Shown piece by piece: positions 2,166 to 62,847 of a stretch of DNA of 64,000 nt (position 1 is its first letter; each line of letters opens with the position of its first letter). Below the pieces are notes generated by a model. The model saw only the letters and a program-made list of their open reading frames with translations, was not told where the DNA came from and made no database searches. Source of the stretch: a virus (taxonomy: Duplodnaviria; Heunggongvirae; Uroviricota; Caudoviricetes); the IMG/VR virus record IMGVR_UViG_3300046522_000748; one strand, given 5' to 3'. Position numbers and translations under genes: made by a program.

Positions 2166-2182
2166 TGTCAATACCAGTGACA
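2166..2182 (-). promoter_or_regulatory. TGTCA-N7-TGACA box overlapping -35
   Basis: tgtca ataccag tgaca (perfect). Confidence 0.75.
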
Positions 2183-2185
2183 TTT

Positions 2186-2899
2186 TCAGTGGCTTTCGAG
2201 GGTCACCCACCAGCCACGAAAATCACTGTAATGTACGTAGAGTGCGCCATTGTCGCCAATGACCGGGCTGTGCATTGTGCAAAAAATCGTATCCTGCGTG
2301 CTTTCCTGATCGCTTTGGATACCCCAGGCATAGCCACCGAAATACGGTGCATCGCGTGGCACCAACTTGTTCGCATACTCCCAGTATTCATCCATCAAGG
2401 ACATGTCCTTCATGCTTTCGAATACGTCCACTGTTTCCGAAGGAACTGGCACCAGCCTCATGATGGAGTACTGATAAACAACCCCAGCCGGACGTGGCTT
2501 CCACTGAATCTCCTTCGCAGGACGCGAATCGAAATAGGTGATGCCTTTCCAATCGCCTCTCAGGTCGAGAAATACCCACAGTACACCCACGGAGGGTAGA
2601 TCAGGACAGTTCCTTGCCTGCCATGGAATTTCTTCAAGGTTTACTTGCAGCCAAAATGTTGGCCCATCCAATGGTGAGCCCGGCGAGCAGTATTGAATGG
2701 GGAAATCCGGGTTTTCAGGAATATCAGGAAGACCCAGCCAGTGGGTATAACCCATGGCTGGAAGGTCACCAACGGGCGGTGTCTTCAGTGACCCTTTGGT
2801 TGGCTTGAATACCGCTGCTTGCCGCGCCGCTCGTTCGATGGCGTGCGCATACACATTCAGGTCGCCGGGAATGGTTTGGTGATCAATCGGTGCAGGCAT
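2186..2899 (-). CDS. DUF1963/YwqG-like protein
   Basis: FWLQVNLEEIP, LPSVGVLWVF, FGGYAWGIQ, GDNGALYV match the family pattern. Confidence 0.7.
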   Translation of the reverse strand: MPAPIDHQTIPGDLNVYAHAIERAARQAAVFKPTKGSLKTPPVGDLPAMGYTHWLGLPDIPENPDFPIQYCSPGSPLDGPTFWLQVNLEEIPWQARNCPDLPSVGVLWVFLDLRGDWKGITYFDSRPAKEIQWKPRPAGVVYQYSIMRLVPVPSETVDVFESMKDMSLMDEYWEYANKLVPRDAPYFGGYAWGIQSDQESTQDTIFCTMHSPVIGDNGALYVHYSDFRGWWVTLESH

Positions 2900-2920
2900 G
2901 ATTTTTCTCGATGTGAGGTT

Positions 2921-3130
2921 TTAACGTGATGCGTCGTGATGGGCAGCCAACCAAAGCTCGGCCATTTCCTGGCGAATCCGGCGCAGGTCACGTGTGGCCC
3001 ACACCTTCATGATTTGTGCGTCACTCAATATGTCGAAGCAGCCGGTTTTGGTTTCCATTCGGACATACCAATGCTCGACGCCTTCAATTTCCCGTGAGGC
3101 GAGATGAGGCACAAACGCAACGTGGGCCAT
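2921..3130 (-). CDS. hypothetical protein
   Basis: Start moved to MAHVAF to avoid overlap with upstream gene. Confidence 0.5.
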   Translation of the reverse strand: MAHVAFVPHLASREIEGVEHWYVRMETKTGCFDILSDAQIMKVWATRDLRRIRQEMAELWLAAHHDASR

Positions 3131-3179
3131 TTTTTTTCCTATCAGTTCTGGGGAGCACCGTTTGGGTGCGCACGTTGGT

Positions 3180-3425
3180 TCACCATTTGCGAGAATCTTC
3201 TGGATGGCCTGCCTTGAAGCCATCCCAGGCATAGAAGTAAGGGCCATTTCCTGCCTCAACAAGCTCAGTAACCCATATTTTCACCACGTCGTAGTCGTCG
3301 TGGGACTCATAATCGAGCAAGGCGAGACTGGCAATTGCAGCGAGACCGTATTGGCCGGTTTTCACCTCAAGAGTTTGCTCTGGGCCACCATTGATTTGGA
3401 CGCAAAACATCGTTTTATCTGACAT
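3180..3425 (-). CDS. hypothetical protein
   Basis: 81 aa ORF, AAGGA RBS. Confidence 0.65.
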   Translation of the reverse strand: MSDKTMFCVQINGGPEQTLEVKTGQYGLAAIASLALLDYESHDDYDVVKIWVTELVEAGNGPYFYAWDGFKAGHPEDSRKW

Positions 3426-3476
3426 ATATTTTCCTTCAGAAACTGCTACGGCGCAAACGGCACCTCTTCTACTGAC

Positions 3477-3499
3477 AAAGCCCCGAGAAACGGGGCTTT
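3477..3499. terminator. intrinsic terminator
   Basis: aaagccccg-agaaa-cggggcttt. Confidence 0.65.
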
Positions 3500-3931: not shown

Positions 3932-4351
3932 TTAAACGAAGGCAACTACTTTCTTCAGCGTCCGGATCACAGGTGTTTTTTCAAAGGGAACGAGGCAGTC
4001 AAAGCAGCCGGACTGGTAGAAATCGATGGTTTCACCGTCTGGATCATAGCCGCCCTCTTTGCTCAGGCGCTGCGCAATGACACGGTGGCCGTCAGGGTAG
4101 GTATCGTTGCCCGCATTGCCGCCGCCATCAAAGCGAGTGTCAATAACGATGTACTCACCACGGAAGGTGTCTGTCTTCAGCTTCTTCCTGGCGCCATTGT
4201 CGAGGATGTCGCCGACGCTGATGGTTTTTTTGGTGAGTTCTGTGTTTTTTGGCATGCCGGTGTAGACGAACATTTGGGGAATGCTCGCCCGAATCTTCAT
4301 CCCTTGGGTCACCGCGAACACATCGCCAACGTTCAAATATTGTTGAGTCAT
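3932..4351 (-). CDS. hypothetical protein
   Basis: 139 aa, first gene after box promoter 4416. Confidence 0.75.
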   Translation of the reverse strand: MTQQYLNVGDVFAVTQGMKIRASIPQMFVYTGMPKNTELTKKTISVGDILDNGARKKLKTDTFRGEYIVIDTRFDGGGNAGNDTYPDGHRVIAQRLSKEGGYDPDGETIDFYQSGCFDCLVPFEKTPVIRTLKKVVAFV

Positions 4352-4415: not shown

Positions 4416-4432
4416 TGTCAATCATAATGACA
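4416..4432 (-). promoter_or_regulatory. TGTCA-N7-TGACA box / sigma70 promoter
   Basis: perfect box; TTGACA-17-TATACT on minus strand. Confidence 0.85.
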
Positions 4433-4485: not shown

Positions 4486-5226
4486 TTAGCCCTTGAGCTG
4501 TTCTGTCACCTTGGCCAGCTCAGCTTCAAGCTCTTTTTGCTTGGCCGTGAGGTGGCGTTTCATCAGGAATTTTTCAATACCGGTCTTCATCGACATCAGC
4601 AGCTTGCGCGAGATTTCCTGGTTGGTTGCTCGTGCCACCGCGCCGTACATTCTGAGGTTCAGCACACCATCGGCATCGTGACTGAAGGAAAAGCTCGATT
4701 TTGCGTCGGTCAGAAAACCTGACTGCCGGTATTTGTGCTTGAACTTCTCCAGCTGTGTTTGCATGTGATCGATCATCGACTCAACCGCCTTGCAGCCTTC
4801 GGCAAAACCATCGCCTTCATCGGTACTGAAGGTGAATTGATCGATGTCGCACAGTTCCTGTTCGATACGGGTTTCACCTTGCAGGTTGATTTTGTCCAGA
4901 TTGACCAGCCAGATTTCCTGGAGGTCATCCACGACCCAATCGATGACGCCACGATCTTGGCGTGTGGAAAGGATGAACTTGAATTGGGTGAAATCGACCG
5001 AGTTTAGATTGAGGCGATTGCCGGTGAAGGTCAGATCGCCGAGGGTCAGTTCTTCTTCGCCGGAAATCTTCAGGGCGCGCTTGACCGAAAATGGCGTGAG
5101 GTTGCCGCAACGAGCACCGTAACGATCATTAGGGATTTCGTAATGGCAGTTCATTGCCTTGTCCACAGTGAGAAAGGTAAACGGCCCTGCCGTTTTAGAA
5201 ACCAGAATGGCAATGAAGTCGCTCAT
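4486..5226 (-). CDS. hypothetical protein, C-terminal coiled coil
   Basis: 246 aa; GAGG RBS; box promoter at 5279. Confidence 0.8.
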   Translation of the reverse strand: MSDFIAILVSKTAGPFTFLTVDKAMNCHYEIPNDRYGARCGNLTPFSVKRALKISGEEELTLGDLTFTGNRLNLNSVDFTQFKFILSTRQDRGVIDWVVDDLQEIWLVNLDKINLQGETRIEQELCDIDQFTFSTDEGDGFAEGCKAVESMIDHMQTQLEKFKHKYRQSGFLTDAKSSFSFSHDADGVLNLRMYGAVARATNQEISRKLLMSMKTGIEKFLMKRHLTAKQKELEAELAKVTEQLKG

Positions 5227-5278: not shown

Positions 5279-5295
5279 TGTCAACATGATTGACT
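5279..5295 (-). promoter_or_regulatory. box variant / sigma70 promoter
   Basis: tgtca acatgat tgact; TTGACA-17-TATAAT. Confidence 0.8.
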
Positions 5296-7404: not shown

Positions 7405-7680
7405 TTACAGAGTGAGAGAGCGCACAAGGCGGCTAAAGGCGGATTCGATAACGGAATCCAGGATAATGGCGCGAACATCCTGAGGGCGCACGCTGGCGCC
7501 GTTCTGCAAGAACCAAACAGCCACTTCTTCGTCCGTTACAAAGCCCTTTTCGGCCAGCTTGGCGCGTTTGAGGGCGTAGGCGGCTTGAACATCCGCATCG
7601 TCCCAGGCCCATTCGCGCTGTGGGCGGTAATAGGGGGTGCTGGTGTGTTCGGGTATGGGTTGCGGCCATTCTTCTGCCAT
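7405..7680 (-). CDS. hypothetical protein
   Basis: Start moved to MAEEWP because the box promoter (7746) lies in the longer ORF. Confidence 0.65.
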   Translation of the reverse strand: MAEEWPQPIPEHTSTPYYRPQREWAWDDADVQAAYALKRAKLAEKGFVTDEEVAVWFLQNGASVRPQDVRAIILDSVIESAFSRLVRSLTL

Positions 7681-7745: not shown

Positions 7746-7762
7746 TGTCAATGCTGCTGACC
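7746..7762 (-). promoter_or_regulatory. box variant / sigma70 promoter
   Basis: tgtca atgctgc tgacc; TTGACA-17-TATAAT. Confidence 0.75.
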
Positions 7763-10115: not shown

Positions 10116-10238
10116 TCACTCTGTCAGGGGCTTCTTGTGCTTCTTGTAGCCTGCCCGCTCGGCCTTGCGGCGATCCACCTGCACCGAGGCGCGGCAGAAC
10201 TTGTGAGCGTGCTTGGCAACGAAGTTTTGAGCTTTCAT
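10116..10238 (-). CDS. small basic peptide
   Basis: Read by eye: MKAQNFVAKHAHKFCRASVQVDRRKAERAGYKKHKKPLTE; AAGGA RBS; directly behind box promoter 10297. Confidence 0.65.
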   Translation of the reverse strand: MKAQNFVAKHAHKFCRASVQVDRRKAERAGYKKHKKPLTE

Positions 10239-10296: not shown

Positions 10297-10355
10297 TGTC
10301 AATCAGAATGACACAAAATATCTTGCAGGCATGCCCCTTGAAAATCACATTGACA
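10297..10355. promoter_or_regulatory. divergent pair of box promoters
   Basis: Perfect box 10297-10313 (leftward, TTGACA-17-TAGAAT); variant 10339-10355 (rightward, TTGACA-17-TATAGT). Confidence 0.8.
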
Positions 10356-10405: not shown

Positions 10406-10876
10406 ATGGGCACACGTGTTAGCTACCGAATCGGCGAGTCGGTTGTTCTGTATTCCAACAACAGTCATGCTGACGAAGACCCGGAGGCCCTGTTCAGGGA
10501 GTACGTTGAGCGTTATTCAGACCGGCCTCAAAAACTGGTGGAAGAACTGCTCGAACTCACCTACGAGGACTCCTCTGGCCTCAACAAAGCCGGTGATCCG
10601 ATGTTCCGGATTGACTTTGCGCCCGGTGACTTTGAAAAACTCATTGTGGCCAAGCTCACTCGCAACGATGTGCTGGAGGTCGAGCAGTACGATTCCACTG
10701 ACGCCACCAGCCTGGATCTGCGCAAAAAGCTCCGGCATGCCTTCAGCATGGAGTTCAACGGCGGCGAGTTCATTTCGACTGGCGATCCGGTCATGCATCA
10801 GGAAATGACCAGCGCACGCGCTTGGGCGGAATGGGGCTACGATCAGGCCATTCTCCAGGGCTTGCTGAAACGCTGA
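10406..10876 (+). CDS. hypothetical protein
   Basis: Start MGTRVS after AAGGA and promoter. Confidence 0.75.
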   Translation: MGTRVSYRIGESVVLYSNNSHADEDPEALFREYVERYSDRPQKLVEELLELTYEDSSGLNKAGDPMFRIDFAPGDFEKLIVAKLTRNDVLEVEQYDSTDATSLDLRKKLRHAFSMEFNGGEFISTGDPVMHQEMTSARAWAEWGYDQAILQGLLKR

Positions 10877-13339: not shown

Positions 13340-13891
13340 ATGATGGACATGGCTAAATTTATTCAGGAAACACTGTTTCGAGACTCGAAGGTTCGGGGCG
13401 CGGACGGCGCGCTGCTGGTGCTTTACCATGGCACAACCAGCACGTTTACAGACTTTGATGTCGTTAAAAACCCTTCAGGGTATGGCAATTTGCGCGGCTT
13501 TTATTTTACCTCCGACCGTTCGGCGGCTGAAGACTACGGGCCGGTGGTGATGGCGGTGCATCTGGATTTTAAAAACCCTTTTATCGGCAATCCATTTACC
13601 CATTATGCCCAGGTGCATGGCATCGAGAAGCCTGGGTTTGGTTCTCGCCCCGAGGTCTTTGCCAAGTACAAAGCCGTGACTCACACCGTGGTAAAGGACT
13701 ATCTGATTGCACAAGGATTTGACGCGGTGATCATCGAGGCTCAGGACAACTATTTGGCCCACGACGAATACATTGCCTTCAATCGAGAGCAAATCAAGGT
13801 GATTTCATCTGAACGCATGGTTGAGGTGGAGTTGGAGGCCAAGGCTCCGGCGAGACATGTTGCAACAGCGGGGATAGGGATGGAGATGTAG
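13340..13891 (+). CDS. ADP-ribosyltransferase-fold protein (ART-PolyVal-like)
   Basis: SKV...G..LVLYHGT...F..F...GFYFT...A..YG...EYIAFNREQIK. Confidence 0.7.
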   Translation: MMDMAKFIQETLFRDSKVRGADGALLVLYHGTTSTFTDFDVVKNPSGYGNLRGFYFTSDRSAAEDYGPVVMAVHLDFKNPFIGNPFTHYAQVHGIEKPGFGSRPEVFAKYKAVTHTVVKDYLIAQGFDAVIIEAQDNYLAHDEYIAFNREQIKVISSERMVEVELEAKAPARHVATAGIGMEM

Positions 13892-13936: not shown

Positions 13937-14956
13937 TCAGAAGCCGCGATACGTCGTAGCACGCGTCCACAGTCGAACGATGACCGTTTCCAGCACTGAC
14001 GCAGCAGCGAAGCCCAAGCGCGCTTTCAGACCGCGCTTCTTTGGCAATTCGAACTGCACTTGTATCAGATTGTTATCCATCGCTTTTTTTGCCAGATACT
14101 CATCGCTGGTCATCAGCATATCGACAAGTTTCTTTTCTGCGGCCTCGGAGCCGAACCACGATTCGCCCGTGGCAATTTCATCCATCGCCAGCCCAGGTCG
14201 ATATTTGCTGACAAAAGTTTTGAACAGTCCGTGGACAGCATCCACTTCATCCTGAAATTTCTGGCGACCGGCTTCGGTGTTTTCACCCATGGTGGTCAGG
14301 GTGCGCTTGAACTCACCGGCAGTGATCAATTCATAATCGATGCCATGCTTTTTCAGCAGCTTGTTGAAATTGGGCATGGAGGCCACGACGCCGATGGAGC
14401 CCAGGATTGCAAACGGTGCGCTGATCACCTTGTTAGCGATACAGGCCATCATGTAACCACCGCTGGCGGCAACCTTGTCCACACAAATGGTCAGAGGTAC
14501 ACCAGCTTCGCGAATCCGCGCCAGTTGGGAGGCGGCAAGGCCATACCCATGCACTGCGCCACCGGGTGATTCGAGACGGACAACCACTTCATCCTGGTGC
14601 GCTGCATCACTCAAAATGGCGGTGACTTCATTGCGTAGAGACTCCACTGCCGAAGCTTCAATATCGCCATTGAAATCCAAGACATAGACCTTGTGTCTTT
14701 TTTCGTTGAAATCGGCATCCTTGATGGCTTTTTTAGCTGCTTTGCGTCTCGCCTTGCTCATGCAGGCGTGTTGAAGGGTTGTATTCAGCTTGCTGTAGAA
14801 TTCATTGAGGCTGGTGACTTTCAGCTCGCCTTCTTTGCGGCGGCTTTTGCCACGAGACATGGCAAAAATGCCCACCATGGCAGCAAATACCAGCAGGACT
14901 GTGAGGGATTTGGCAAGAAAACCGGCGTAATCGAGGAGTAGCGGCATGGGTTCCAT
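13937..14956 (-). CDS. sohB: S49-family protease SohB
   Basis: N-terminal TM, LESPGG.VHGYGLAASQL, DKVAASGGYMMAC, GSIGVV, AGEFKRTLT. Confidence 0.93.
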   Translation of the reverse strand: MEPMPLLLDYAGFLAKSLTVLLVFAAMVGIFAMSRGKSRRKEGELKVTSLNEFYSKLNTTLQHACMSKARRKAAKKAIKDADFNEKRHKVYVLDFNGDIEASAVESLRNEVTAILSDAAHQDEVVVRLESPGGAVHGYGLAASQLARIREAGVPLTICVDKVAASGGYMMACIANKVISAPFAILGSIGVVASMPNFNKLLKKHGIDYELITAGEFKRTLTTMGENTEAGRQKFQDEVDAVHGLFKTFVSKYRPGLAMDEIATGESWFGSEAAEKKLVDMLMTSDEYLAKKAMDNNLIQVQFELPKKRGLKARLGFAAASVLETVIVRLWTRATTYRGF

Positions 14957-15095
14957 CTTCAAAATTATGGCGCACGACAGGTGTGCCAAGCTTGGTGATT
15001 ATTATGACGGTTGCTGCGCAAATGTCAATATGAATTACCAATTTCTACGGATGAAACCCGCCTAAACAAACAATTATAGTGGAGTAACTGGCTTA

Positions 15096-15983: not shown

Positions 15984-16165
15984 TAGGAGGTCTCATTGTG
16001 ACAGTATGGAGTTTATAGACAAAATCAGGCCCACCCCGGCGAATTTTTGCTGGGCGACCCGACATGCTTTCATGTTTATTATCTATGAAAACCATCTGAC
16101 AAGTAAAGACCAACGAAAAAACCTCCAGTTAAGGAGGCTTTTTGCGAACGTTGAAACTGAGGTGA

Positions 16166-16654: not shown

Positions 16655-16703
16655 GGCTTCATTACACCTTTTTAAATATTTTAGCTATTTGCACTGAGGC
16701 TAC

Positions 16704-16731
16704 TTGACATCGTTGTTTCTGATAGTAAGAT
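16704..16731 (+). promoter_or_regulatory. sigma70 promoter of tRNA
   Basis: TTGACA-16-TAAGAT. Confidence 0.65.
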
Positions 16732-16743
16732 TACATTCATTGA

Positions 16744-16820
16744 CGCGGGGTGGAGCAGTCTGGTAGCTCGACGGGCTCATAACCCGTAGGTCGTAGGTTC
16801 AAATCCTGCCCCCGCAACCA
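16744..16820 (+). tRNA. initiator tRNA-fMet (CAT)
   Basis: 77 nt, C1:A72 mismatch, three G:C pairs closing the anticodon stem, GTTCAAATC T-loop, encoded CCA. Confidence 0.97.
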
Positions 16821-19009: not shown

Positions 19010-19127
19010 GGTGTGGATTCCGCGATTCCCAAAAATAACAAAAGCGCCTTTAGCGCTCGATTGAGGTTAGTTTAACGAAACTTCGAGATTATGTCAATAT
19101 CAAAAACATGGTGATTATTAGTGCCAA

Positions 19128-20040: not shown

Positions 20041-20057
20041 TGTCAACATCAATGACA
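20041..20057 (-). promoter_or_regulatory. TGTCA-N7-TGACA box / promoter
   Basis: perfect box; TTGACA-17-TAGAAT. Confidence 0.85.
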
Positions 20058-22362: not shown

Positions 22363-22379
22363 TGTCAATACAATTGACA
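22363..22379 (-). promoter_or_regulatory. TGTCA-N7-TGACA box / promoter
   Basis: perfect box; TTGACA-17-TATAAT. Confidence 0.85.
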
Positions 22380-23219: not shown

Positions 23220-23236
23220 TGTCAATCACATTGACA
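23220..23236 (-). promoter_or_regulatory. TGTCA-N7-TGACA box / promoter
   Basis: perfect box containing the stop of the upstream gene; TTGACA-17-TATACT. Confidence 0.85.
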
Positions 23237-24463: not shown

Positions 24464-24563
24464 TGTCAATGCAAATGACATTTTTCCGAGTATTATCTGT
24501 ACCTATAATGGAGGGTGTTTTTGTGTTTATGATATTGACATGATGACCTGATATCGCTATACT
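24464..24563. promoter_or_regulatory. divergent pair of box promoters
   Basis: Perfect box 24464-24480 (leftward) and variant 24524-24540 (rightward), both TTGACA-17-TATACT. Confidence 0.8.
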
Positions 24564-30389: not shown

Positions 30390-30406
30390 TGTCAATATTA
30401 TTGACA
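30390..30406 (-). promoter_or_regulatory. TGTCA-N7-TGACA box / promoter
   Basis: tgtcaatattattgaca; TTGACA-17-TATGAT. Confidence 0.85.
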
Positions 30407-30778: not shown

Positions 30779-30795
30779 TGTCAATTGCAGTGACA
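30779..30795 (-). promoter_or_regulatory. TGTCA-N7-TGACA box / promoter
   Basis: perfect box, identical to 62831-62847; TTGACA-17-TATACT. Confidence 0.85.
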
Positions 30796-31641: not shown

Positions 31642-31658
31642 TGTCAACCACAATGACT
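31642..31658 (-). promoter_or_regulatory. box variant / promoter
   Basis: tgtca accacaa tgact; TTGACA-17-TATACT. Confidence 0.75.
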
Positions 31659-33607: not shown

Positions 33608-34102
33608 TTATTGTTTTTCCGACCAAGCCTTTGTGTCGATCACCGAATTAACGGAACTGATGATTTGATCTTTGTATTTTTCTGGTGTTTCTCGAATTTT
33701 CCCACTGGAGAAGGAGTACAACTCACCATTGATGGTTCGAAAGGCGAATCCATCTCCCGGCTCATTGTCGGTTTTTATGATGAATGTGCCGCCTTTGTAG
33801 GCGCAGATTGAGTTGTCTTTTTCACAGCCAATCACTTCTGTAATGCGCAGTCGATCAGGTTGTGCTCCATTAATTTCATAGGCACTGCTACCAGATTGAT
33901 AGTTGTAATCGATTTCAACCGGAGTGATTTTCTTCAATGATTCCACTTGATCGGTGCTCAAGAGCGATATAATCGAGGAATCACGGAATTTACCATACAT
34001 GTAGTATTCACGATCAATACCAGACGCTTTCACCCAAACCAACCCGGCTGTCATCAGCACTGACAGTGCGCAGGCGCCCCATGCAACATGTTTTATCTTC
34101 AT
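33608..34102 (-). CDS. membrane-anchored or exported protein
   Basis: N-terminal hydrophobic segment. Confidence 0.7.
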   Translation of the reverse strand: MKIKHVAWGACALSVLMTAGLVWVKASGIDREYYMYGKFRDSSIISLLSTDQVESLKKITPVEIDYNYQSGSSAYEINGAQPDRLRITEVIGCEKDNSICAYKGGTFIIKTDNEPGDGFAFRTINGELYSFSSGKIRETPEKYKDQIISSVNSVIDTKAWSEKQ

Positions 34103-35897: not shown

Positions 35898-35914
35898 TGT
35901 CAATATCGCTGACT
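35898..35914 (-). promoter_or_regulatory. box variant / promoter
   Basis: tgtca atatcgc tgact; TTGACA-17-TATAAT. Confidence 0.75.
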
Positions 35915-36758: not shown

Positions 36759-36873
36759 GATGTGATTCCTTTGAGTGCTGTATGTGTGGTTTTGGGTGAT
36801 TCGTTGAATATGATTTATTATATATCCACGCCTGTGTTGCGTCAATATAATTTCGAACTATATTTTATGATTG

Positions 36874-39851: not shown

Positions 39852-39973
39852 TGTCAATACCAATGACATTTATGTTTCCTTCTATACGTGCTCCGGTTTC
39901 TTATTGTTAACCGAACAAAAAGGCCATTATTTTTGATAATGATATTGACACATGCAATTCTTTGCCATATTAT
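39852..39973. promoter_or_regulatory. divergent pair of box promoters
   Basis: Perfect box 39852-39868 (leftward); variant 39934-39950 (rightward, TTGACA-17-TATTAT). Confidence 0.8.
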
Positions 39974-43513: not shown

Positions 43514-43530
43514 TGTCAATTACAATGACA
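43514..43530 (-). promoter_or_regulatory. TGTCA-N7-TGACA box / promoter of ART-oxygenase operon
   Basis: perfect box; TTGACA-17-TATCAT. Confidence 0.85.
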
Positions 43531-46385: not shown

Positions 46386-46483
46386 CAAGGGTTTCCATTT
46401 TGACCGAATTAGGATAGCTATTTATTTGGCTATTATAGCAATACCTTACGTTTTTGGCAATCTTAGTGCAACCGAGCCACGCG

Positions 46484-49371: not shown

Positions 49372-49641
49372 TTAGCGACTCACGAGCCAACCTTCAGTCC
49401 TGTTTTCGTGAAGCCACAGCCAGCCATTAGGAGAAGCTTTGACCTTTGCATAGCATTCAGGGGTCACCGTTACCAGTCTCACGGTCTCGGTACGAGAGAA
49501 CTCGTGCCCTTGGTGACCATTGATTTCAGCGGACTTGGCATCCATCGCCGCTTGGTCGATGGCAAGCAGGTAACCATCGGGCCGATTGCCCCACCGGGCT
49601 TCGTATTCGGTCACTGCGCATGCGTAAACTGTGTTATCCAT
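49372..49641 (-). CDS. hypothetical protein
   Basis: Start MDNTVY after AGGAG. Confidence 0.7.
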   Translation of the reverse strand: MDNTVYACAVTEYEARWGNRPDGYLLAIDQAAMDAKSAEINGHQGHEFSRTETVRLVTVTPECYAKVKASPNGWLWLHENRTEGWLVSR

Positions 49642-50428
49642 TGGCTTTCTCCTGTTGAGTGGTTTTCGCCTTTCGAGTGCGAACGATGGGTTGATCCTCA
49701 TAGCCGAAACCGGCCATGAATTCCCGAAAAAACAGCTTTTGCAGGAACTCCGAGTCTTCGTGACTCAGGCCTTGCGGCTGTTTGCCTTCCTCAAACAATT
49801 GGCGCAGCCGCTGCTGCTCTTCTTCATCGCATTGCAGCTCGAAACTTGGAATGGCCGCAGCCTTGAACCACCAGCGGTCTGCCAACACCAGGGCGCTTTG
49901 ATTCTCGCCCAGAGTGCCCAGCAGCTCGATGCCGCGCCCAAAGGTGCGTGAGCGCACTTCGGTGGTCAGGCAGTAGTGTGCAATGTCTTCCATCGCATGC
50001 GGGTTCTTCTGGAACGAAGAAAAGGTGTCCAGACTCAGGCCAAACAGGCTAACGGGGTCGCCCTTCTGCTCGGGACGCGACAGCCCTTCCATCGCATGCA
50101 GTTTGGTCTTGCGAATCTTCAGTGCGCTGTTGATGTCAGGCACCAGTGAGCCGACCGAGCCATCACCCAGGCTGTGGCACAACACCATTGCAGAAGGGCG
50201 CAGCATAAAGTCCTTGGTTACGACCAGCACGGCCTGACCGGTGCTCTCGTAGTATTGAGAGATCACGACATTCGGGTTTGGCGAGTTGGGATTCATCGAG
50301 GAGCCAACATCAAAATACTTGGGCGAGTAATCGTTGATGTTGTAGCAGAGATCGAGCGAATTGCTGTCAATCCTGGCGACTTGATCGAGGTCGCGGTGAC
50401 GTACCGCCATTAGAATAATGCAACCCAT
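49634..50428 (-). CDS. hypothetical protein
   Basis: Start MGCIIL behind box variant 50485-50501. Confidence 0.75.
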   Translation of the reverse strand: MGCIILMAVRHRDLDQVARIDSNSLDLCYNINDYSPKYFDVGSSMNPNSPNPNVVISQYYESTGQAVLVVTKDFMLRPSAMVLCHSLGDGSVGSLVPDINSALKIRKTKLHAMEGLSRPEQKGDPVSLFGLSLDTFSSFQKNPHAMEDIAHYCLTTEVRSRTFGRGIELLGTLGENQSALVLADRWWFKAAAIPSFELQCDEEEQQRLRQLFEEGKQPQGLSHEDSEFLQKLFFREFMAGFGYEDQPIVRTRKAKTTQQEKANG

Positions 50429-50570
50429 TTGAAGACCCCTGATCAGTTGGTATATACAGGCTATTATACTCGGATCAAGGTGTTTGTCAATCACATTTAC
50501 TCGTGGTGCCGTAGACTGGAAATGTTTGTGCCCTCGGGTTGTCGAGGGCACAGAACAACACGTGGGGGGA

Positions 50571-51153: not shown

Positions 51154-51336
51154 TTATGCAGCGCTGGCGTCATTCTCAGCAGGTGCCGAGCTGGTCACGC
51201 GCACCGTCTGGGTGATCTTGACGAGGGTTTCCTTGGCCTTCTGCTCGCACTGACGCAGGCTGGTGCCTGTGGCGGTGATTTGGGCTTTAGAGCCGTCTTT
51301 GCGCAGGCCGGTGAAGGAAAAGCTCATGGTGCTCAT
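51154..51336 (-). CDS. small hypothetical protein
   Basis: Behind box variant 51393-51409. Confidence 0.65.
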   Translation of the reverse strand: MSTMSFSFTGLRKDGSKAQITATGTSLRQCEQKAKETLVKITQTVRVTSSAPAENDASAA

Positions 51337-51430
51337 TTAGGTATTGCCTCTTTGGTTTGTATTGTCGATATTATAGTGACCCGACAAGCTTTCGTCAATG
51401 TCACTGACCAAAATAAATGATTAATTACGA

Positions 51431-52963: not shown

Positions 52964-53290
52964 TTATGGCTGGCTGTCTCGACGACGCGCTTCTGCTACA
53001 GTGACGCATCCGTAATCAGGGTGCATCGTCCAAGGGCTTACGTCCAGAAGGCGACAGACCTCGTTATGCAGTTCATCGAAGCCTTGAATGCAATCGCAGC
53101 CTCTGGCCACATCCATATCAAGACTCTCTGCCAGATGCTGGAGTCCAAGATAGGTATCCTTGAGCATCGTGTCTGGCGTCAACAGATCAAAACACAGGTT
53201 GTGAAAATGGGGGTGGTGCGTCGGCGACTGACCGAATTTCAGCTCCAGTGGCAGGAGTTGATGCGCGACTTTGGCGATAATCGGTTCCAT
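52964..53290 (-). CDS. hypothetical protein
   Basis: Behind box variant 53347-53363. Confidence 0.65.
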   Translation of the reverse strand: MEPIIAKVAHQLLPLELKFGQSPTHHPHFHNLCFDLLTPDTMLKDTYLGLQHLAESLDMDVARGCDCIQGFDELHNEVCRLLDVSPWTMHPDYGCVTVAEARRRDSQP

Positions 53291-53346: not shown

Positions 53347-53444
53347 AGTCAATCATGCTGACCTTAATCCGACAAAAATACTGGCGAGATCAGTGCTTTT
53401 CGGCTGTCATTTATATTGACATTTTATGGATTTTTGAGTAGAGT
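53347..53444. promoter_or_regulatory. divergent pair of box promoters
   Basis: Variant 53347-53363 (leftward); perfect 53405-53421 (rightward, TTGACA-17-TAGAGT). Confidence 0.8.
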
Positions 53445-53483: not shown

Positions 53484-53726
53484 ATGAAAGAACACGACAT
53501 TGTATCGGATGTGGATCTTGACACGGCCCACGCATTCGCCAATTTCGGCATGGAAAAACGGGAAGTTATTCGCTTGGCCGTGCTGAAATGCGCCAGCGGG
53601 TTGGCTCAAGGTCATACCTCGCGGGTCATTTGCGAGGAATTGGGCTTGATCGATGAGGATTACAGGATTACGTGTAAAGGTCAGGCTTATCTGTGGGCAG
53701 CGTTCAGCAACGGCAGCAATTTTTGA
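53484..53726 (+). CDS. hypothetical protein
   Basis: 80 aa. Confidence 0.7.
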   Translation: MKEHDIVSDVDLDTAHAFANFGMEKREVIRLAVLKCASGLAQGHTSRVICEELGLIDEDYRITCKGQAYLWAAFSNGSNF

Positions 53727-53757: not shown

Positions 53758-53797
53758 TGTCAACACCATTGACACCGATGTGCATTCCGAGTACAAT
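53758..53797 (+). promoter_or_regulatory. TGTCA-N7-TGACA box / promoter
   Basis: perfect box; TTGACA-17-TACAAT. Confidence 0.85.
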
Positions 53798-53823: not shown

Positions 53824-54060
53824 ATGACCCAAATTATTGAAAAGCAGGCCAATCAGTACGACAAGGGCGAACGCGTAACTTGCCCTCATTGCGGTGCTGT
53901 TCAGCCAGACGAGGTGGAAGCCTACGTCGTTCAGGGCACGCTTGAAATTGTCACAGATAGCTGCGAGACCTGTCACAAGCGCTTTTCCATTCTGGAGCTG
54001 ACCTGTGGCCTGTATCAGCTGCGCAAACTGAACACTCCGCCACAAAAACCAAAGGTGTAA
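53824..54060 (+). CDS. zinc-ribbon protein
   Basis: CPHC...CETC. Confidence 0.7.
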   Translation: MTQIIEKQANQYDKGERVTCPHCGAVQPDEVEAYVVQGTLEIVTDSCETCHKRFSILELTCGLYQLRKLNTPPQKPKV

Positions 54061-54650: not shown

Positions 54651-55022
54651 ATGCACCAGCCTCATGCCATCCCTTTGTTCACCCTGGTCGAAATTCTCGG
54701 CAACCCTGAAGATCCAAGGATTAACGATGGCTTGCGCCTGTATGTTCAATTCCACGAATACGACTGCGATGGCACACCACTGTACGCGCTAACATCCAAC
54801 TTCAAAACCATCGGGCGGCATTTGCAAAGCCGCCTCGGTATGACTGATGAGGATCGTGCATATTACCTGCGCCACGGCAGGGCTGTCATGCATGGTTACT
54901 CGGAAAAATCATTGGTTGTAATTCACTCTGCTGAAATCACTCTGGCCGGTCTGGCAGAAGCAGGGTATCGCTTCGATGGCAAATCGGTCGAATGGATAGA
55001 GCGCGACCAGTCTGCCATGTAA
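54651..55022 (+). CDS. hypothetical protein
   Basis: 123 aa. Confidence 0.7.
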   Translation: MHQPHAIPLFTLVEILGNPEDPRINDGLRLYVQFHEYDCDGTPLYALTSNFKTIGRHLQSRLGMTDEDRAYYLRHGRAVMHGYSEKSLVVIHSAEITLAGLAEAGYRFDGKSVEWIERDQSAM

Positions 55023-55084
55023 ATCACATTGACAATATTTCGAGGGTTGTGTATACTCACCCCATTCTCTTGAGGAGTCACCCT

Positions 55085-55516
55085 ATGCATCCCTCGCTGT
55101 TTGTCGAAAAGTACCTGACCAATGTCTCTTTGCTGATCAAGGACATGGTTCGAACAAATGAGCGTTATGATGACATGATGTTCAATATGCGCTCTCGCAC
55201 CTCCTACGACGAACCTGCTCAGGCAGAAGGCTGGGTGCAGTGCTTTGATGATCAGGGGAATTACCACAACAAGCAGACGGGAGAGTTCTCTCTTGCTGGC
55301 AGTTGGGAAGAACTCTGTGATGAGCAACACTACGCGGCTTACCAGTCCGATGTAATGGGCTACTACATCATTGACCCTTCCATGGTTGAGCGCTTCAAAG
55401 AGGAAGGTGAGTTGGTGATGGAAGATTTTTTCGGCCTGTGCCTCTGGGGTCGCTGCACCACTGGTCAATCGGTTCATGATGATGGTGTAATACAGCGGAT
55501 CGCTGAGGTCATCTAA
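55085..55516 (+). CDS. hypothetical protein
   Basis: GAGGAG RBS; box variant 55018-55034. Confidence 0.75.
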   Translation: MHPSLFVEKYLTNVSLLIKDMVRTNERYDDMMFNMRSRTSYDEPAQAEGWVQCFDDQGNYHNKQTGEFSLAGSWEELCDEQHYAAYQSDVMGYYIIDPSMVERFKEEGELVMEDFFGLCLWGRCTTGQSVHDDGVIQRIAEVI

Positions 55517-56596: not shown

Positions 56597-56708
56597 GTAA
56601 GATAACCAACCATGTGGTTGTCAGGGTAAAACGGCCAGACGAGCGGATGATTATGTCATTGACATTTCATCCGTAAATCTGTATGATTACTCTCAAATCA
56701 AGTCAGTC

Positions 56709-57008
56709 ATGAGAGCAGTCAGCATGCAGGCAGTCAGTTTCGCTAATTCGTTGCCAAAGCCTACCGCTGGGGCGGATGGTCTCTTTACCGGGGTTGTTGA
56801 AAACCGTTACGACCCCAAGGAATACAATCAGGTCGATCAGTTTGGTCGGTCGTATACGCTTGATCAACTCAGCCGTGAGGATCTGATGCAGCTCGCCTGT
56901 TATGGGATTGATGCCATGGAGCGAATGGATGTGCTGATCGACAAGCAACTCCAGCTTGCCGACAGTTGGCGTAAAGACATGCAGTTGCCAGTTGAATCAG
57001 TCGATTGA
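56709..57008 (+). CDS. hypothetical protein
   Basis: Box variant 56648-56664; terminator 57023-57053. Confidence 0.7.
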   Translation: MRAVSMQAVSFANSLPKPTAGADGLFTGVVENRYDPKEYNQVDQFGRSYTLDQLSREDLMQLACYGIDAMERMDVLIDKQLQLADSWRKDMQLPVESVD

Positions 57009-57699: not shown

Positions 57700-58053
57700 T
57701 TACTTGCTTGGCTGGGGAATTTTCACTTTTCGGCTTGTGTGCTTGATGGCCATTTCGACACGCAGTGCCAGGAACTCAGGGGAGTCTTCCAGCAGGTTGT
57801 TACGCCGCTGATTGCAGCGTTGGTGTGAGATCGAAAGGTTATCCATGTCATCGGTGCCGCCGTGAGACAGCGGCAGGACATGCTCTAGGGTGGCATGCTG
57901 TTCTTCGACGTGACACTCGCACACAAAGCATGGCACCCTGCCGTGCTTTTTGTTGAGCATGCGATAAATCGTTTCGCGTCGCCCCTTCCTGACGCTGCCT
58001 GCAAGGCGTGCTTTCATGGCCGAGGACAAGTACAGTTTTTTGGCTTTGGCCAT
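57700..58053 (-). CDS. HNH endonuclease
   Basis: CFVC...TLEHVLPLSHGGTDDMDNL..SHQRCN. Confidence 0.85.
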   Translation of the reverse strand: MAKAKKLYLSSAMKARLAGSVRKGRRETIYRMLNKKHGRVPCFVCECHVEEQHATLEHVLPLSHGGTDDMDNLSISHQRCNQRRNNLLEDSPEFLALRVEMAIKHTSRKVKIPQPSK

Positions 58054-58074: not shown

Positions 58075-58428
58075 TTAGTGCGGTAGATTCAGATCGACTT
58101 TGTACACCTTGCCGACCAGCTTGGTGCTGCCGTTCTTGAGTCGTTGGTAGAAGCCGGTGAAATGGTACACACCCACTTCACTGCAAGGCCCTTCATCCTT
58201 GGTCAAATCGATGAGGTATTCCTGGCGATCTTCAAAGTAGGCTGGGCCTTCGTCGAAGGTCGGAAATTCACTGCTGACCACCACCACGTCACCATGTTGG
58301 CCGTTGATGAACACGAAACGGCCTTCATGTTTGGAGCCCGGCTCAGCGTCCATATGACCCCATGTTTGCGCCACGATTTGAGCGGCAGTGTGCGCTTCGG
58401 CGATTTCAATGGCGGAGGCGAAAGACAT
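58075..58428 (-). CDS. hypothetical protein
   Basis: Box variant 58490-58506. Confidence 0.7.
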   Translation of the reverse strand: MSFASAIEIAEAHTAAQIVAQTWGHMDAEPGSKHEGRFVFINGQHGDVVVVSSEFPTFDEGPAYFEDRQEYLIDLTKDEGPCSEVGVYHFTGFYQRLKNGSTKLVGKVYKVDLNLPH

Positions 58429-58623
58429 GATGAAGTCCTGTGGTTAATTGTGTTTTGGTAAAGGGTATTATACTCACATACAACCACATGGTCAACCTTA
58501 TTGACATTGCAGCCCAGCTTCTTAAACGGATATTATTTAGTTGACGTATATCGCATGATTTGTATAATCGAATCTTACGAGACGAAATACCAAGATTGGA
58601 TAATCTCTTTCTTTGATGCACGC

Positions 58624-58682: not shown

Positions 58683-59057
58683 TTACGCGGCGACTGGTTC
58701 CGGCTGTTTGGCCAGTTCGCAGGCGGCTTCATACAGTCCCTCAAAATCGCCGTATTCCTGCACCATTGACGCAGGCAGCTCTTGGCCGGTAGCGAGGAGG
58801 TAGGTGTCGAGCATCGATTTGGCGCCGCCAATCTTGAACGCCATTTGATGCATAGCGCGAATGCTGGAGGCATCTTTGTGCGTTTCGAAGTTGATGATCC
58901 AGCTCAAGGTGGAGCCCAGGATGCCACGGTAACCGGCCACCAGCTTGTTGGTGGTGGTATCCATGTTCCGCATGTCGGACATGATGCGCTCGCGCAGCTC
59001 TGGAAGCGTATTGCGAATGTATTCGGCGGTCGGTGTCAGGGCTTGGCTCACGGTCAT
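58683..59057 (-). CDS. hypothetical protein
   Basis: GGAG RBS; perfect box 59102. Confidence 0.75.
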   Translation of the reverse strand: MTVSQALTPTAEYIRNTLPELRERIMSDMRNMDTTTNKLVAGYRGILGSTLSWIINFETHKDASSIRAMHQMAFKIGGAKSMLDTYLLATGQELPASMVQEYGDFEGLYEAACELAKQPEPVAA

Positions 59058-59101: not shown

Positions 59102-59118
59102 TGTCAATACAGATGACA
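59102..59118 (-). promoter_or_regulatory. TGTCA-N7-TGACA box / promoter
   Basis: perfect box; TTGACA-17-TATAAT. Confidence 0.85.
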
Positions 59119-59661: not shown

Positions 59662-61662
59662 TTAGAACTTTACGTTCAGAACACGGTTGATCGAACCTTT
59701 CACACGCAACAGGATTTCATTACGCTTCACGACAGAGAAGCCCAGGCCGCTCAATTGGTTGTCGTTGGCCGCAACTTTCATCTGCGCCGATACCACTTCG
59801 AACACTTTGCGGTGTGGTGTCAGTTCCTCACGCAGGTATTCGTTGTAGAAACCACGAGTGCCTTCTTCGTTTGCGCAGCCCTTGAGCATAAAGAACACAT
59901 GCTCATGACCGTTGGCTTGATCATTCCAGAAGTTTGGCGAACGGGTGATCAAATCAACCGGTGTCCAGTCTTCGGTTTTGATGCCCCACTGCTCGTTAGA
60001 TGCACCACCAGCAGTCATACCTTCGACGGTGATGACTCCCGCCGCGTCAACATTGATGTAGCCAACGGTGACACGTTTGTCATTACCCAGCGCTGTCGGA
60101 TGCGCGAAGCTGTAGATTTTGCCCAACACCTCAACTTCAATATCGAAGCCGACGTTATTGGTGGAGCGCTGACACCAGTTGTGAACCTGAATTTCGTAGC
60201 GGCCTTTTTTGATGTCGCGCTGGCGAGTCCAGAAAATGTTTTCAACCGGGTCAGTCGTGTTGTGCGCGTGACCGGCGTTCATGTCCACATCGAGTTGCGC
60301 ACCGAAATTGCTGCGCTCGCGGAACCAGCAGCGGTTGCGACCATCGCTTACGCTCAGGTCGAGGTCGTCACCGTTACGCCACGACAGGGACACTCGAACA
60401 TCACCGTCAACCTTGCCGCCTGCACGCTTCACCCGCTCACGGATCGAATCGGTAACTTCACCCACATACGACCACGAAAATGCGTTATCCCATTTGAACA
60501 ACGGTTTTGCATCGGTGTGAACCGGGGCTACCAGACTCACGAAGTTGGTGCGGTGTTCGTTCTTCACAAACGCTTCAACCGTGTCCGCTTTCGGCAGCAC
60601 TTTCTGGAGGAAATCTTTGATCGAGATTTCTTCAACGTCGTTCAGAACCGGAACGGCTTTCTTGGTTGGCTTCACCGCGTCGAACGCGCCGCCCAGCAAT
60701 TTCTTTTTCACAGTGCCATCAACGAAAAGCACGTTGTTAACCGAGATGTCTTCGCGCACGGCGTAACGACGTGCCAGCGAATCTTCCAGGCCCAGTTTCT
60801 CGACCAGCTTTTGGGCTTCGTCGATCATCTTCTGGGTGACCAGTGCTTTCGAACGCTTGTAGTTGGTGCCCGAAGTTTTGTCTTCGAATTTCTTCACGGC
60901 AACTTCAAGATCAGTGCCTTCGGTAATATCCGAGAGCAGAGTGCCGATGACGGTGCCGAGAATACGGGTATTTTTCTTGCCGTTTTCCCACAGGAAGGCT
61001 TCACGCTCCTGGTCGGTTGTCAGTTTGGCGTACTGGCGCTTCAGTTTGCGCAGCAGGTCAATCGCCCACTTGTATTCTGGGCCTTTGTACAGCGAGTCCT
61101 GGTCGATCAGTTCGGCAACGATTTCGATTGCGTCGTCGCTGATTTCTGTGATCGAGCGCATCAGGCCTTGAACGTCGTTTTTACGTTCGCCGATGTAGTT
61201 GGTTTCGTTGTTTTTCCACTGGAAAATCACAGGCACTTTGGCGTGGAAGTGATTCCAGATTTCGCCTTTGGTGTTGGTTTGTTCAGCGCCGTAAGCTGGT
61301 TCGCTGACGATGAAGTGCTGTTCGATTGGCAGTGCCTTCACAAACGCCGCCATGGAATCGGCAATCGTCTGGAACAGCGCATCTGCAACAGTCACGTCCC
61401 ACACGGACAGCATTTCGCCGTTTTTCATGTACACGACGGCGCCAATGTTTTTCACGAAATTGCGGCAGCACGAGCAGTCGTATTCGGTACGGGTGCGGAA
61501 AATTGGGTTGGTGCCTTCAGGGAACGACGCAAGGTAATGCGCCCACAGTTCGTCACCGGTTGCACTCACAACGAACACGTTGTCTTTTTTGCCATCGTCT
61601 TTCTGGATGATGGAGTTGAATGCGTTGTGTACCGCTTTACCAAAAACAGAAAAATCGCTCAT
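59662..61662 (-). CDS. large phage-type protein with YfaP/DUF2135-like C-terminal domain
   Basis: N-terminal YDCSCC; RVSLSW...DLDL...LDVDMN...PVENIFW. Confidence 0.8.
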   Translation of the reverse strand: MSDFSVFGKAVHNAFNSIIQKDDGKKDNVFVVSATGDELWAHYLASFPEGTNPIFRTRTEYDCSCCRNFVKNIGAVVYMKNGEMLSVWDVTVADALFQTIADSMAAFVKALPIEQHFIVSEPAYGAEQTNTKGEIWNHFHAKVPVIFQWKNNETNYIGERKNDVQGLMRSITEISDDAIEIVAELIDQDSLYKGPEYKWAIDLLRKLKRQYAKLTTDQEREAFLWENGKKNTRILGTVIGTLLSDITEGTDLEVAVKKFEDKTSGTNYKRSKALVTQKMIDEAQKLVEKLGLEDSLARRYAVREDISVNNVLFVDGTVKKKLLGGAFDAVKPTKKAVPVLNDVEEISIKDFLQKVLPKADTVEAFVKNEHRTNFVSLVAPVHTDAKPLFKWDNAFSWSYVGEVTDSIRERVKRAGGKVDGDVRVSLSWRNGDDLDLSVSDGRNRCWFRERSNFGAQLDVDMNAGHAHNTTDPVENIFWTRQRDIKKGRYEIQVHNWCQRSTNNVGFDIEVEVLGKIYSFAHPTALGNDKRVTVGYINVDAAGVITVEGMTAGGASNEQWGIKTEDWTPVDLITRSPNFWNDQANGHEHVFFMLKGCANEEGTRGFYNEYLREELTPHRKVFEVVSAQMKVAANDNQLSGLGFSVVKRNEILLRVKGSINRVLNVKF

Positions 61663-61749
61663 TGCTTTCTCTCACTTCCGTGATAATGGAAATAACTTTA
61701 ATGGGGCTTGTTCGTATTTATGGCCATATTATACATAAGGCCAGGCGTT

Positions 61750-61766
61750 TGTCAATATAATTTACA
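61750..61766 (-). promoter_or_regulatory. box variant / promoter
   Basis: tgtca atataat ttaca; TTGACA-17-TATAAT. Confidence 0.75.
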
Positions 61767-61818
61767 GATAATCATAGTGATGTCGGGGGCTGTTTTGCCC
61801 CCTTCACCATCGAGCGGC

Positions 61819-62412
61819 TTACCAATAGGCCAGCGGGTTACGCCAGTCGGGTTTGTTTTCTTCCAGCCAAGCATCTGCTCGTGCATCGAGTACATCTGCC
61901 TGTTCGTAGTCAGTGCGCTCGCGCTTACCGATTACAATCACGCAGCTTTTATCGTGATCGACGATTTCGCACAGCACAAACTCTGGGAGATTATCGCCAG
62001 CGACAATCCGATGGCCATCCACGTCACAGGCTTGATAACGGCTGATGCCGAAACGTCGATCTATCGACACATGGGCGCTTTTATCGTAAAACGCGGCTTT
62101 GTAGAACACGCTGGCGCGGCAACGTCCCTGCTCATCATGCACGTACGACCACATCGAATGGCTAGATGGGCGCAGCGTCCAGCCTTGCGGGGGCTCAACG
62201 GATACGAACAGGTCATCCAGGTTTTCGCCGAATACGAAGCCCAACTGTTCCAGCATGTGGCGACCTGAAGGCTCATCTATCTGACGGGGAAGGCGGTCGA
62301 AGGTAAGAGTCAGTTGGCTTTGGCCCATTTTTTCTTGCTCTTCAATGCCCCCTGGAGTAATTGCCACCAGTAGGTTGTTCATCAGTAGGTTGGCCAGCGG
62401 CGTTTTATTCAT
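61819..62412 (-). CDS. phage-like hypothetical protein
   Basis: 197 aa; box variant 62478-62494. Confidence 0.75.
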   Translation of the reverse strand: MNKTPLANLLMNNLLVAITPGGIEEQEKMGQSQLTLTFDRLPRQIDEPSGRHMLEQLGFVFGENLDDLFVSVEPPQGWTLRPSSHSMWSYVHDEQGRCRASVFYKAAFYDKSAHVSIDRRFGISRYQACDVDGHRIVAGDNLPEFVLCEIVDHDKSCVIVIGKRERTDYEQADVLDARADAWLEENKPDWRNPLAYW

Positions 62413-62543
62413 TCTGATTCGGCCTCATGTCTATCAATGATTTGGATTGGGGTCATTATAGTCAATCACGAATCAAATGTCAATGTCATTTACAGGTATC
62501 CTAAAAACAAAGGAGCCTTCCTGGCTCCTTCTTTATTGGAAGA

Positions 62544-62780
62544 TTATGGGTAGGGCTTCCCTGTCACCAGGGGTCTTAGCACATTGCCCCGCTCTTCACG
62601 CAATTCTCGTGCTGGCGGCGAAGCGAGATCCTGGGGTTCGAGGTGCCCACCAAAAGGAATATTGAATGACGGCTTCGGCTGATTCTTTCGCTCAATGACC
62701 ATCACTTTTCCGTCTTTTACATAACAGATTTGGGACAGCGTTTTCAGGTCGTCAAATGCGTTAGGCAGAGTAGGTCGCAT
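62544..62780 (-). CDS. hypothetical protein
   Basis: Behind perfect box 62831. Confidence 0.55.
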   Translation of the reverse strand: MRPTLPNAFDDLKTLSQICYVKDGKVMVIERKNQPKPSFNIPFGGHLEPQDLASPPARELREERGNVLRPLVTGKPYP

Positions 62781-62830
62781 ACGGAATTCCTTTCAAGAGA
62801 TTGGTCTATTTTAACCAATCACAATCAATT

Positions 62831-62847
62831 TGTCAATTGCAGTGACA
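62831..62847 (-). promoter_or_regulatory. TGTCA-N7-TGACA box
   Basis: perfect box. Confidence 0.8.

Follow-up and report, generated by a model that had tools for sequence, protein, structure and literature searches.

The control of strong promoters by a global repressor is an established principle in plasmids and temperate phages. IncP-1 plasmids keep strong host-independent promoters under a few global repressors, KorA and KorB, which act on repeated palindromic operators, with about 7 to 12 KorA sites per plasmid. The operators of the P1 repressor C1 are 17 bp long and are found all over the extrachromosomal element, in many cases overlapping promoters of accessory operons; they are asymmetric (ATTGCTCTAATAAATTT type), are bound by a monomer and number about 20 on 94 kb. 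The stoperator of cluster A mycobacteriophages contains the word TGTCAA/TTGACA and overlaps the −35 hexamer at the early promoter. Here we describe a symmetric 17-bp box, TGTCA-N7-TGACA, that is repeatedly fused to near-consensus σ70 promoters in a stretch of 64,000 nucleotides (the window) from the Caudoviricetes record IMGVR_UViG_3300046522_000748 of IMG/VR. What is new in this element is an inverted 7+3+7 putative operator built on the −35 hexamer, its density and its probable replicon-wide scale.

The closest mechanistic precedent is ArdK of the IncW plasmid R388, a 102-aa repressor of the KorA family with a recognition helix identical to that of σ70 region 4 (PMC9723621). ArdK binds two TTGACA arms, one of them being the −35 hexamer, at five promoters, which are active for a short time once the plasmid has entered a cell by conjugation (PMC9723621, PMC3937220). 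Its natural operators are direct repeats (TTGACA-N4-TTGACA) recognized by an asymmetric dimer, with a spacer of 3–6 bp in the clade, and the protein also repressed synthetic inverted repeats with 3–4 bp between the arms (PMC9723621), which we read as TGTCAA-N3/4-TTGACA from the remark in that paper that the TGxCA period was kept. KorA of IncP-1, on the other hand, recognizes a palindrome of 12 bp that lies at the −10 region (PMC9723621). A 17-bp site of sequence TGTNA-N7-TNACA is bound by the MerR-type winged-helix proteins GlnR and TnrA of Bacillus and Paenibacillus, GlnR being a repressor (PMC9948412, PMC3384305). Finally, dozens of genome-wide repressor sites are found as stoperators (L5 gp71 type) in cluster A mycobacteriophages, in which the repressor also blocks elongation (PMC9283540, PMC6550527).

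Analysis of the window revealed 16 exact TGTCA-N7-TGACA boxes, compared with 0.09 expected from 100 dinucleotide-preserving shuffles, and 15 of the 16 sit in near-consensus σ70 promoters. When at most one mismatch was allowed, the extended dyad TGTCANTNNNANTGACA was present at 19 sites (0.14 expected). Promoters matching the consensus at 11 or more of the 12 positions numbered 34 (0.53 expected in first-order Markov simulations), and the distal pentamer of 22 of these 34 differs from TGTCA by no more than one base (0 expected). An independent promoter scanner applied to a 20-kb sample returned loose matches at a chance total, yet 11 sites scored 11–12 out of 12. A first reading of the window (the original prediction) had listed 15 perfect boxes and 17 variants; all of them were located at their coordinates, and a sixteenth exact box was added at 34049, which is probably a chance or orphan site.

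Genes were called by a simple codon-usage heuristic, resulting in about 110 open reading frames (ORFs), and promoters were scanned for as a TTGACA-like hexamer followed by TAnnnT at 16–18 bp. The catalogue of 36 promoters obtained in this way comprises 34 intergenic sites plus those at 15023 and 2166 (both with CATAAT as −10), and it is looser than, and slightly different from, the class matching 11 or more positions. A 17-bp spacer is present in about 30 of the 36 promoters; five have 16 bp between the hexamers, and only that at 2166 has 18 bp. The gene-proximal arm is the −35 hexamer in all promoter-associated boxes, every promoter is directed into a co-oriented gene, whose start codon follows a predicted leader of 17–58 nt, and no −10 was seen on the far side of any box. 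These data bear out the claim that one half of the box is the −35, usually 17 bp from a TAnnnT pointing into the adjacent gene. The figure of more than 30 operator-bearing promoters was somewhat generous: 25 of the 36 have a good distal arm (16 with a perfect pentamer and nine with one mismatch), seven are degenerate, with two mismatches, and four have no recognizable arm. The perfect class is made up of the 15 full boxes and the site at 58490 (−35 TTGACC), and the two-mismatch class retains T1, G2, T7 and A11 in part only. Unusually long leaders were observed behind two consensus promoters (164 nt to gene 30797–31447, at 31447–31658, and 206 nt to gene 16166–16654, at 16654–16907), and small RNAs or short ORFs missing from the annotation may be located in these leaders.

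Alignment of the 34 intergenic promoters showed conservation of the distal half at T1 (26/34), G2 (31/34), T3 (29/34), C4 (22/34) and A5 (29/34), followed by T7 (29/34) and A11 (30/34). Positions 12–17 read TTGACA, and 17 uninformative bases separate them from TAtAAT; the proximal arm is ATTGACA, with a consensus −35, in 30 of the 34. T7 and A11 are mirror partners located outside the σ70 −35 hexamer and dispensable for RNA polymerase. Because they mirror each other there, the actual unit is a 7+3+7 dyad, TGTCAnT-N3-AnTGACA. Information is about zero at the dyad centre (positions 8–10), in the spacer and in all flanks. Mirror complementarity amounts to 65–91% for positions 1–5 with 13–17 and to 74% for 7 with 11, and it falls to the 24% background for 0 with 18, just outside the box. 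The centres of the two arms lie 11 bp apart, about one helical turn, like those of classical operators for dimeric repressors, and the dyad is centred near −38 (the −35 hexamer being set at −35 to −30). Four pairs of promoters are arranged back to back, at about 10.3, 24.5, 39.9 and 53.4 kb, with centre distances of 42, 60, 82 and 58 bp, respectively, and with no helical phase common to the four.

A repeated symmetric element of this kind might be maintained without any trans-acting factor, as a mobile promoter cassette comparable to the T4-type promoter-early stem-loops or as a message-ending hairpin, kept by duplication or gene conversion. Six perfect boxes indeed start 0–3 nt past the stop codon of an upstream co-directional gene (one more overlaps the stop), and a few sites fold well, the best being 56648 (z −4.4) and 62831 (z −2.4). 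Nevertheless, the near-zero information outside the functional positions indicates that the 34 promoters are not recent copies of one another. The flanks are not stabilizing overall in a hairpin test with shuffled flanks (mean z −0.16, with 3 of 34 sites below −2), and a stem of 5–7 bp with no T-run is no terminator. In addition, the variant distal arms AGTCA, GGTCA and TGTAA (three sites each) are never compensated by the proximal arm. We consider this the least probable of the explanations. The symmetry ending at the box edge, the uncompensated variants and the lack of a far-side −10 favour instead base-specific reading by a symmetric dimer. This agrees with the earlier argument that a distal half beyond what RNA polymerase needs points to a dimeric protein, an argument backed by the conservation of the distal arm and of T7 and A11. 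Readings of the box as a bidirectional promoter, an UP element, an IHF, Fis or CRP site, or a LysR box were rejected, as they are inconsistent with the spacing or with key bases.

The proximal arm consists of the base pairs read by σ region 4, and a protein bound to the dyad would therefore have to compete with polymerase. Positive control would require the opposite, namely a class-II-type activator or a σ-appropriation factor that recruits polymerase from the dyad. The Crp/Fnr family does read TGTCA-type arms and overlaps the −35 region, but the spacing found here is N7 rather than N6 and the centre lies near −38 rather than −41.5. Besides occupying base pairs needed by σ region 4, such a factor would meet a −35, a 17-bp spacer and a −10 already at or near consensus, to which an activator has nothing to add. 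Recruitment from the dyad is accordingly judged to have very little probability.

The best explanation, to which we assign a probability of roughly 60% on the basis of sequence and of analogy with described systems, is that the 17-bp dyad serves as operator for a single repressor, a symmetric dimer acting in trans. The bound dimer would occupy the same major-groove base pairs as σ70 region 4 and shut the promoter by exclusion, and when bound 0–3 nt past an upstream stop codon it would also roadblock read-through. About 25 transcription units encoding small, mostly acidic, uncharacterized proteins would be kept silent in the resident state, and they would fire together if the repressor were absent or inactivated, for instance upon entry into a new cell. 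In such a design, promoters that are very strong and independent of the host would be combined with a single, tightly acting repressor. Release might be zygotic or damage-driven, and weak distal arms might grade the timing. The motif, its symmetry, its place in the promoter, its density and its absence from the relatives searched are observed; binding, repression and the moment of release are inferred. The ssb gene, the SohB-type S49 peptidase gene and the hipA-like kinase gene, all of recognizable cellular type, have promoters with a poor or absent distal arm, and the difference between these and the operator-bearing promoters is counted as an internal contrast in favour of repression.

Several results weigh against the repressor proposal. 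The regulon would not be uniform, with 9–11 promoters having a weak or absent distal arm, and comparative support is nil, no motif-bearing related element having been found among the relatives searched. No DNA-binding domain was detected in the approximately 110 ORFs of the window (Pfam, 1e-3), a relaxed Pfam search of 20 small window proteins gave nothing convincing, and when the R388 proteins ArdK and KorA were used as phmmer queries on all 1016 open frames present in the window, the best E value was 0.6, which is noise. These searches agree with the earlier remark that the regulator is not obvious in the window; most likely, its gene would lie outside the window, on the same replicon. As a lead only, the regulator may be a σ-region-4-like helix-turn-helix protein of KorA/ArdK type or a GlnR/TnrA-like winged-helix protein; Pfam found no MerR domain in the window.

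The 80-aa protein encoded at 53484–53726, between three putative operators, was tried as a repressor candidate. It gave a weak winged-helix hint only (E 0.067), its single-sequence model had a predicted local distance difference test score of 61 with no significant fold match, and it was not called a repressor; its Atlas neighbours are unnamed phage proteins. The sites at 53347, 53405 and 53758 lie within 430 bp and form the densest cluster of the window, around two small genes; the 80-aa protein is noted as a place to look rather than a supported candidate.

The lack of a regulator within the window would also be expected if the box were the co-opted site of a host-encoded global regulator, so that the genes of the element obey a host signal. 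TGTNA-N7-TNACA is the exact 17-bp format of GlnR/TnrA of Firmicutes, and published GlnR sites include TGTCAAT-type arms (PMC9948412, PMC3384305). On the contrary, the SSB protein looks gammaproteobacterial by eye, and its gene is 77–81% identical at the DNA level to ssb of Pseudomonas plasmids and of a Pseudomonas phage; together with the HipA-like and SohB-type genes, this gives the window a proteobacterial-looking host context, and GlnR/TnrA are not known in Proteobacteria. The targets are orphan ORFs and not nitrogen genes, and the use of a consensus −35 as one arm makes all sites repressive, which one would not expect of a physiological regulon. We regard control by a host regulator as improbable. 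A match to a known host regulator had been named as a result that would speak against the original prediction; the format does fit, but in view of the gene content and the targets we do not count it as a refutation, and the GlnR/TnrA resemblance is kept as a lead to a possible regulator fold, not as evidence of a host regulon.

A different use of the same operator would be a Cro-like shut-off, in which the promoters serve the early phase of a phage-like programme of infection or entry, and the dimer, produced after entry, turns them off in time instead of silencing a resident element. The window has the look of a phage early region, with dense near-consensus promoters before small acidic orphan ORFs, tight gene packing and stacked promoters; its proteins match 43 PHROG families at E ≤ 1e-5, nearly all of them uncharacterized. 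Moreover, the 666-aa protein encoded at 59662–61662 (minus strand), with no Pfam match, has full-length homologues in 550 phage records. However, the window contains no structural or lysis genes, and the nearest phage relatives, Lu11 and a 312-kb IMG/VR genome (57–70% identity in the 666-aa protein), have neither the box nor dense promoters. A Cro-like role is therefore considered unlikely.

The best homologues of the 666-aa protein were found in the Pseudomonas phages pf16, Lu11 and HRDY3 (54–58% identity) and in two 312-kb IMG/VR genomes (about 70%). Lu11, one 312-kb genome and two more distant phage genomes carried 0–1 boxes and chance numbers of TTGACA-N17-TAnnnT. The relatives are thus poor in both boxes and promoters, which indicates that the operator and the dense promoters are particular to this element and were not inherited with the shared genes. 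In JGI metagenomes and IMG/VR, loci related to that of the 666-aa protein reached 70% identity at best, and the metagenome contig with 70% identity had no box upstream of the homologue. No relative of the 471-aa protein was found in IMG/VR, 20 kb of the window compared by megablast with plasmids and phages matched only at ssb, and tblastn with three window proteins against plasmids gave no close relative. A search of IMG/VR for the box followed by TATAAT gave 85 scattered single matches and no contig with several. The same pattern gave single matches in GTDB genomes, mostly in Firmicutes among the matches listed, which probably reflect chance or GlnR binding. No match to the exact motif string was obtained in a literature search. 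The homologues of the 666-aa protein span jumbo Pseudomonas phages, Vi1-like phages, and Caulobacter and Bacillus phages, and the names given to them by depositors conflict, RNA polymerase being one of these names. In a Clostridia metagenome-assembled genome (JAFTTS010000028.1, 5369–5480), three exact TGTCA-N7-TGACA boxes were observed within about 110 bp, probably a GlnR-type operator cluster; it helps to understand why Firmicutes dominate the GTDB matches listed.

Table 1. Boxes and associated promoters in the window, with the genes that they precede
Feature	Position	Strand	Remarks
Perfect box	2166..2182	-	18-bp spacer, −10 CATAAT; for 1784–2101; 3 nt past stop of 2186–2899
Perfect box and promoter	4416..4432	-	For 3932–4351
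Distal arm AGTCA (1 mismatch)	5279..5295	-	Consensus promoter for 4486–5226
Distal arm GGTCA (1 mismatch)	7746..7762	-	Promoter for 7405–7680
Perfect box and promoter	10297..10313	-	For 10116–10238; back to back with 10339
Degenerate arm TGAAA (2 mismatches)	10339..10355	+	Promoter for 10406–10876
Degenerate arm GGTAA (2 mismatches)	15023..15039	-	−10 CATAAT; sohB-like S49 peptidase gene 13937–14947
Degenerate arm TGTTT (2 mismatches)	19092..19108	-	Promoter for 18176–19009
Perfect box	20041..20057	-	1 nt past stop of 20059–20679; promoter for 19748–19990
Perfect box, full 7+7 dyad	22363..22379	-	1 nt past stop of 22381–23169; 12/12 promoter for 21967–22308
Perfect box	23220..23236	-	Overlaps stop codon of 23226–24044; promoter for 22381–23169
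Perfect box and promoter	24464..24480	-	For 24092–24403; back to back with 24524
Degenerate arm TGTTT (2 mismatches)	24524..24540	+	Promoter for 24588–25367
Perfect box, full 7+7 dyad	30390..30406	-	Promoter for 30155–30334
Perfect box	30779..30795	-	1 nt past stop of 30797–31447; promoter for 30431–30724
Distal arm AGTCA (1 mismatch)	31642..31658	-	Promoter, 164-nt leader to 30797–31447
Exact TGTCA-N7-TGACA	34049..34065	.	Inside ORF 33608–34102; no −10, T7 or TTGACA hexamer
Distal arm AGTCA (1 mismatch)	35898..35914	-	12/12 consensus promoter for 35616–35846
ssb promoter without distal arm (TCGAA, 3 mismatches)	36840..36856	-	Strong; ssb 36273–36758; internal control class
Perfect box and promoter	39852..39868	-	For 39508–39804; back to back with 39934
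Degenerate arm TGATA (2 mismatches)	39934..39950	+	Promoter for 39974–40591
Perfect box	43514..43530	-	Abuts stop of 43531–43866; promoter for three-gene unit 43460–41703
Poor arm TTGCA (2 mismatches), −35 TTGCCA	46455..46471	-	Promoter for 46188–46385
Strong promoter, no distal arm	48703		For 47943–48647
Distal arm AGTAA (2 mismatches)	50485..50501	-	Promoter for 49634–50428
Distal arm GGTCA (1 mismatch), −35 TTGACG	51393..51409	-	Promoter for 51154–51336
Distal arm GGTCA (1 mismatch), −35 TTGACT	53347..53363	-	For 52964–53290; back to back with 53405
Perfect box and promoter	53405..53421	+	80-aa gene 53484–53726
Perfect box and promoter	53758..53774	+	Zinc-ribbon gene 53824–54060
Distal arm TGTAA (1 mismatch)	55018..55034	+	For 55085–55516; overlaps end of 54651–55022
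Poor arm TGATT (3 mismatches)	56648..56664	+	−35 within strong hairpin (z −4.4); for 56724–57008
Perfect distal arm, −35 TTGACC	58490..58506	-	For 58075–58428 and HNH gene 57700–58053
Perfect box	59102..59118	-	12/12 consensus promoter for 58683–59051
Distal arm TGTAA (1 mismatch)	61750..61766	-	666-aa phage-type protein 59662–61662
Distal arm TGTAA (1 mismatch)	62478..62494	-	Promoter for 61819–62412
Perfect box	62831..62847	-	1 nt past stop of 62849–63256; promoter for 62544–62780
Strong promoter, no distal arm	63330		For 62849–63256

The products encoded in the window are mostly small and acidic, and Pfam domains were recognized in only about eight of the 110 ORFs (HipA_C, Peptidase_S49, SSB, ART-PolyVal, HNH, DUF2726 and DUF7230); no Pfam family was found for the genes directly behind perfect boxes. 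The hipA-like kinase gene (84–1409, minus strand) has a leader of about 320 nt devoid of ORFs, which runs from an operator-less consensus promoter (−35 at 1766–1761) and contains a perfect hairpin with a 13-bp stem and a T-run at about 1471–1432, just before the start codon. This region may be an attenuator or a riboswitch-like leader, and no hipB-like partner was found upstream of the gene. The product of 13340–13891 (plus strand) consists of an ART-PolyVal ADP-ribosyltransferase domain standing alone (Pfam E 2e-19); modules of this type are typically carried by proteins that conjugative elements and phages introduce together with their DNA. Several groups of paralogues were also observed: three proteins with an HGAYP motif (41703–42353, 42355–43008 and 48725–49366), three Cys-rich ‘MPIFQ’ proteins (43531–43866, 45462–45824 and 45848–46174) and two to three ‘MYEF’ proteins (28973–29515, 29572–30105 and perhaps 27550–28083). 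At about 35390–35437, in the 98-nt gap upstream of 34634–35347, four copies of the 11-nt unit CCACCCGCTGG (minus strand) are arranged head to tail. The G+C content is 46% at 16000–20000 and 32000–36000, compared with about 51% elsewhere in the window; these two stretches may be more recent insertions. ORF 16927–17952 scores poorly under the codon model of the window.

If a single repressor were to govern the whole element, the scale would be larger still. We put forward tentatively, as a doubtful extension, that one repressor with a head mimicking σ70 region 4 runs hundreds of consensus promoters over a megabase-sized replicon. Were this the case, no larger regulon built on a single operator would be known from a mobile element, the repressor acting as a ‘silence everything, fire everything’ switch and rendering the expression of a giant element independent of the host. 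This bears on the question of how a host can harbour giant plasmids and giant phage-like elements, with their hundreds of foreign genes, and not be crippled, and the answer suggested is that near-perfect host-independent promoters are each provided with a built-in off-switch for a single protein. Finding the repressor would give a one-factor handle on dozens to hundreds of uncharacterized genes, many of them probably devoted to counter-defence or establishment. It would also offer a natural test, at about ten times the known scale, of the rule of strong promoter plus global repressor derived from broad-host-range plasmids, and a compact operator-in-promoter part for synthetic biology.

Comparison with the described systems shows where the element follows precedent and where it departs from it. 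The three strongest ArdK operators, located in the R388 sequence, all have an ATTGACA proximal arm, that is, the same 7-bp half-site as found here, and in both cases this arm is the −35. The arms are nevertheless inverted in the window (TGTCAA-N5-TTGACA), at a spacing absent from the tests of the ArdK paper and in an orientation other than that of the ArdK clade. Searches of the window gave no homologue of KorA or ArdK. The targets of ArdK are establishment genes such as ssb and ardC. In R388 the promoter of ssb is the best of these targets, whereas its counterpart here has no distal arm; R388 has five target promoters in 34 kb, compared with about 25 in 64 kb. An ArdK regulon is also listed for plasmid pKM101. 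The 17-bp format is identical to that of GlnR/TnrA, including published TGTCAAT arms, but these two proteins govern nitrogen genes of Firmicutes, at a few dozen chromosomal targets, whereas here the targets are orphan ORFs in a proteobacterial-looking context. Crp/Fnr class II sites (N6 or N4, centred at −41.5, with a weak −35) differ from the N7 dyad near −38 with its consensus −35 in 30 of 34 promoters, and the T4-type promoter-early stem-loop cassettes differ in that no conservation beyond the contact positions and no general hairpin extension was observed here. Stoperators are asymmetric sites of 13–14 bp read by a monomer in actinobacterial hosts and lie mostly outside promoters, whereas the dyad is symmetric and 15 of the 16 exact boxes are promoters. 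The operators of the IncP-1 Kor repressors differ in sequence. Altogether, P1 C1, KorA/KorB and the stoperators work in a similar manner with about 5–30 sites per element, and the arrangement described here departs from them in symmetry, sequence and scale, with about 25 good sites in 64 kb.

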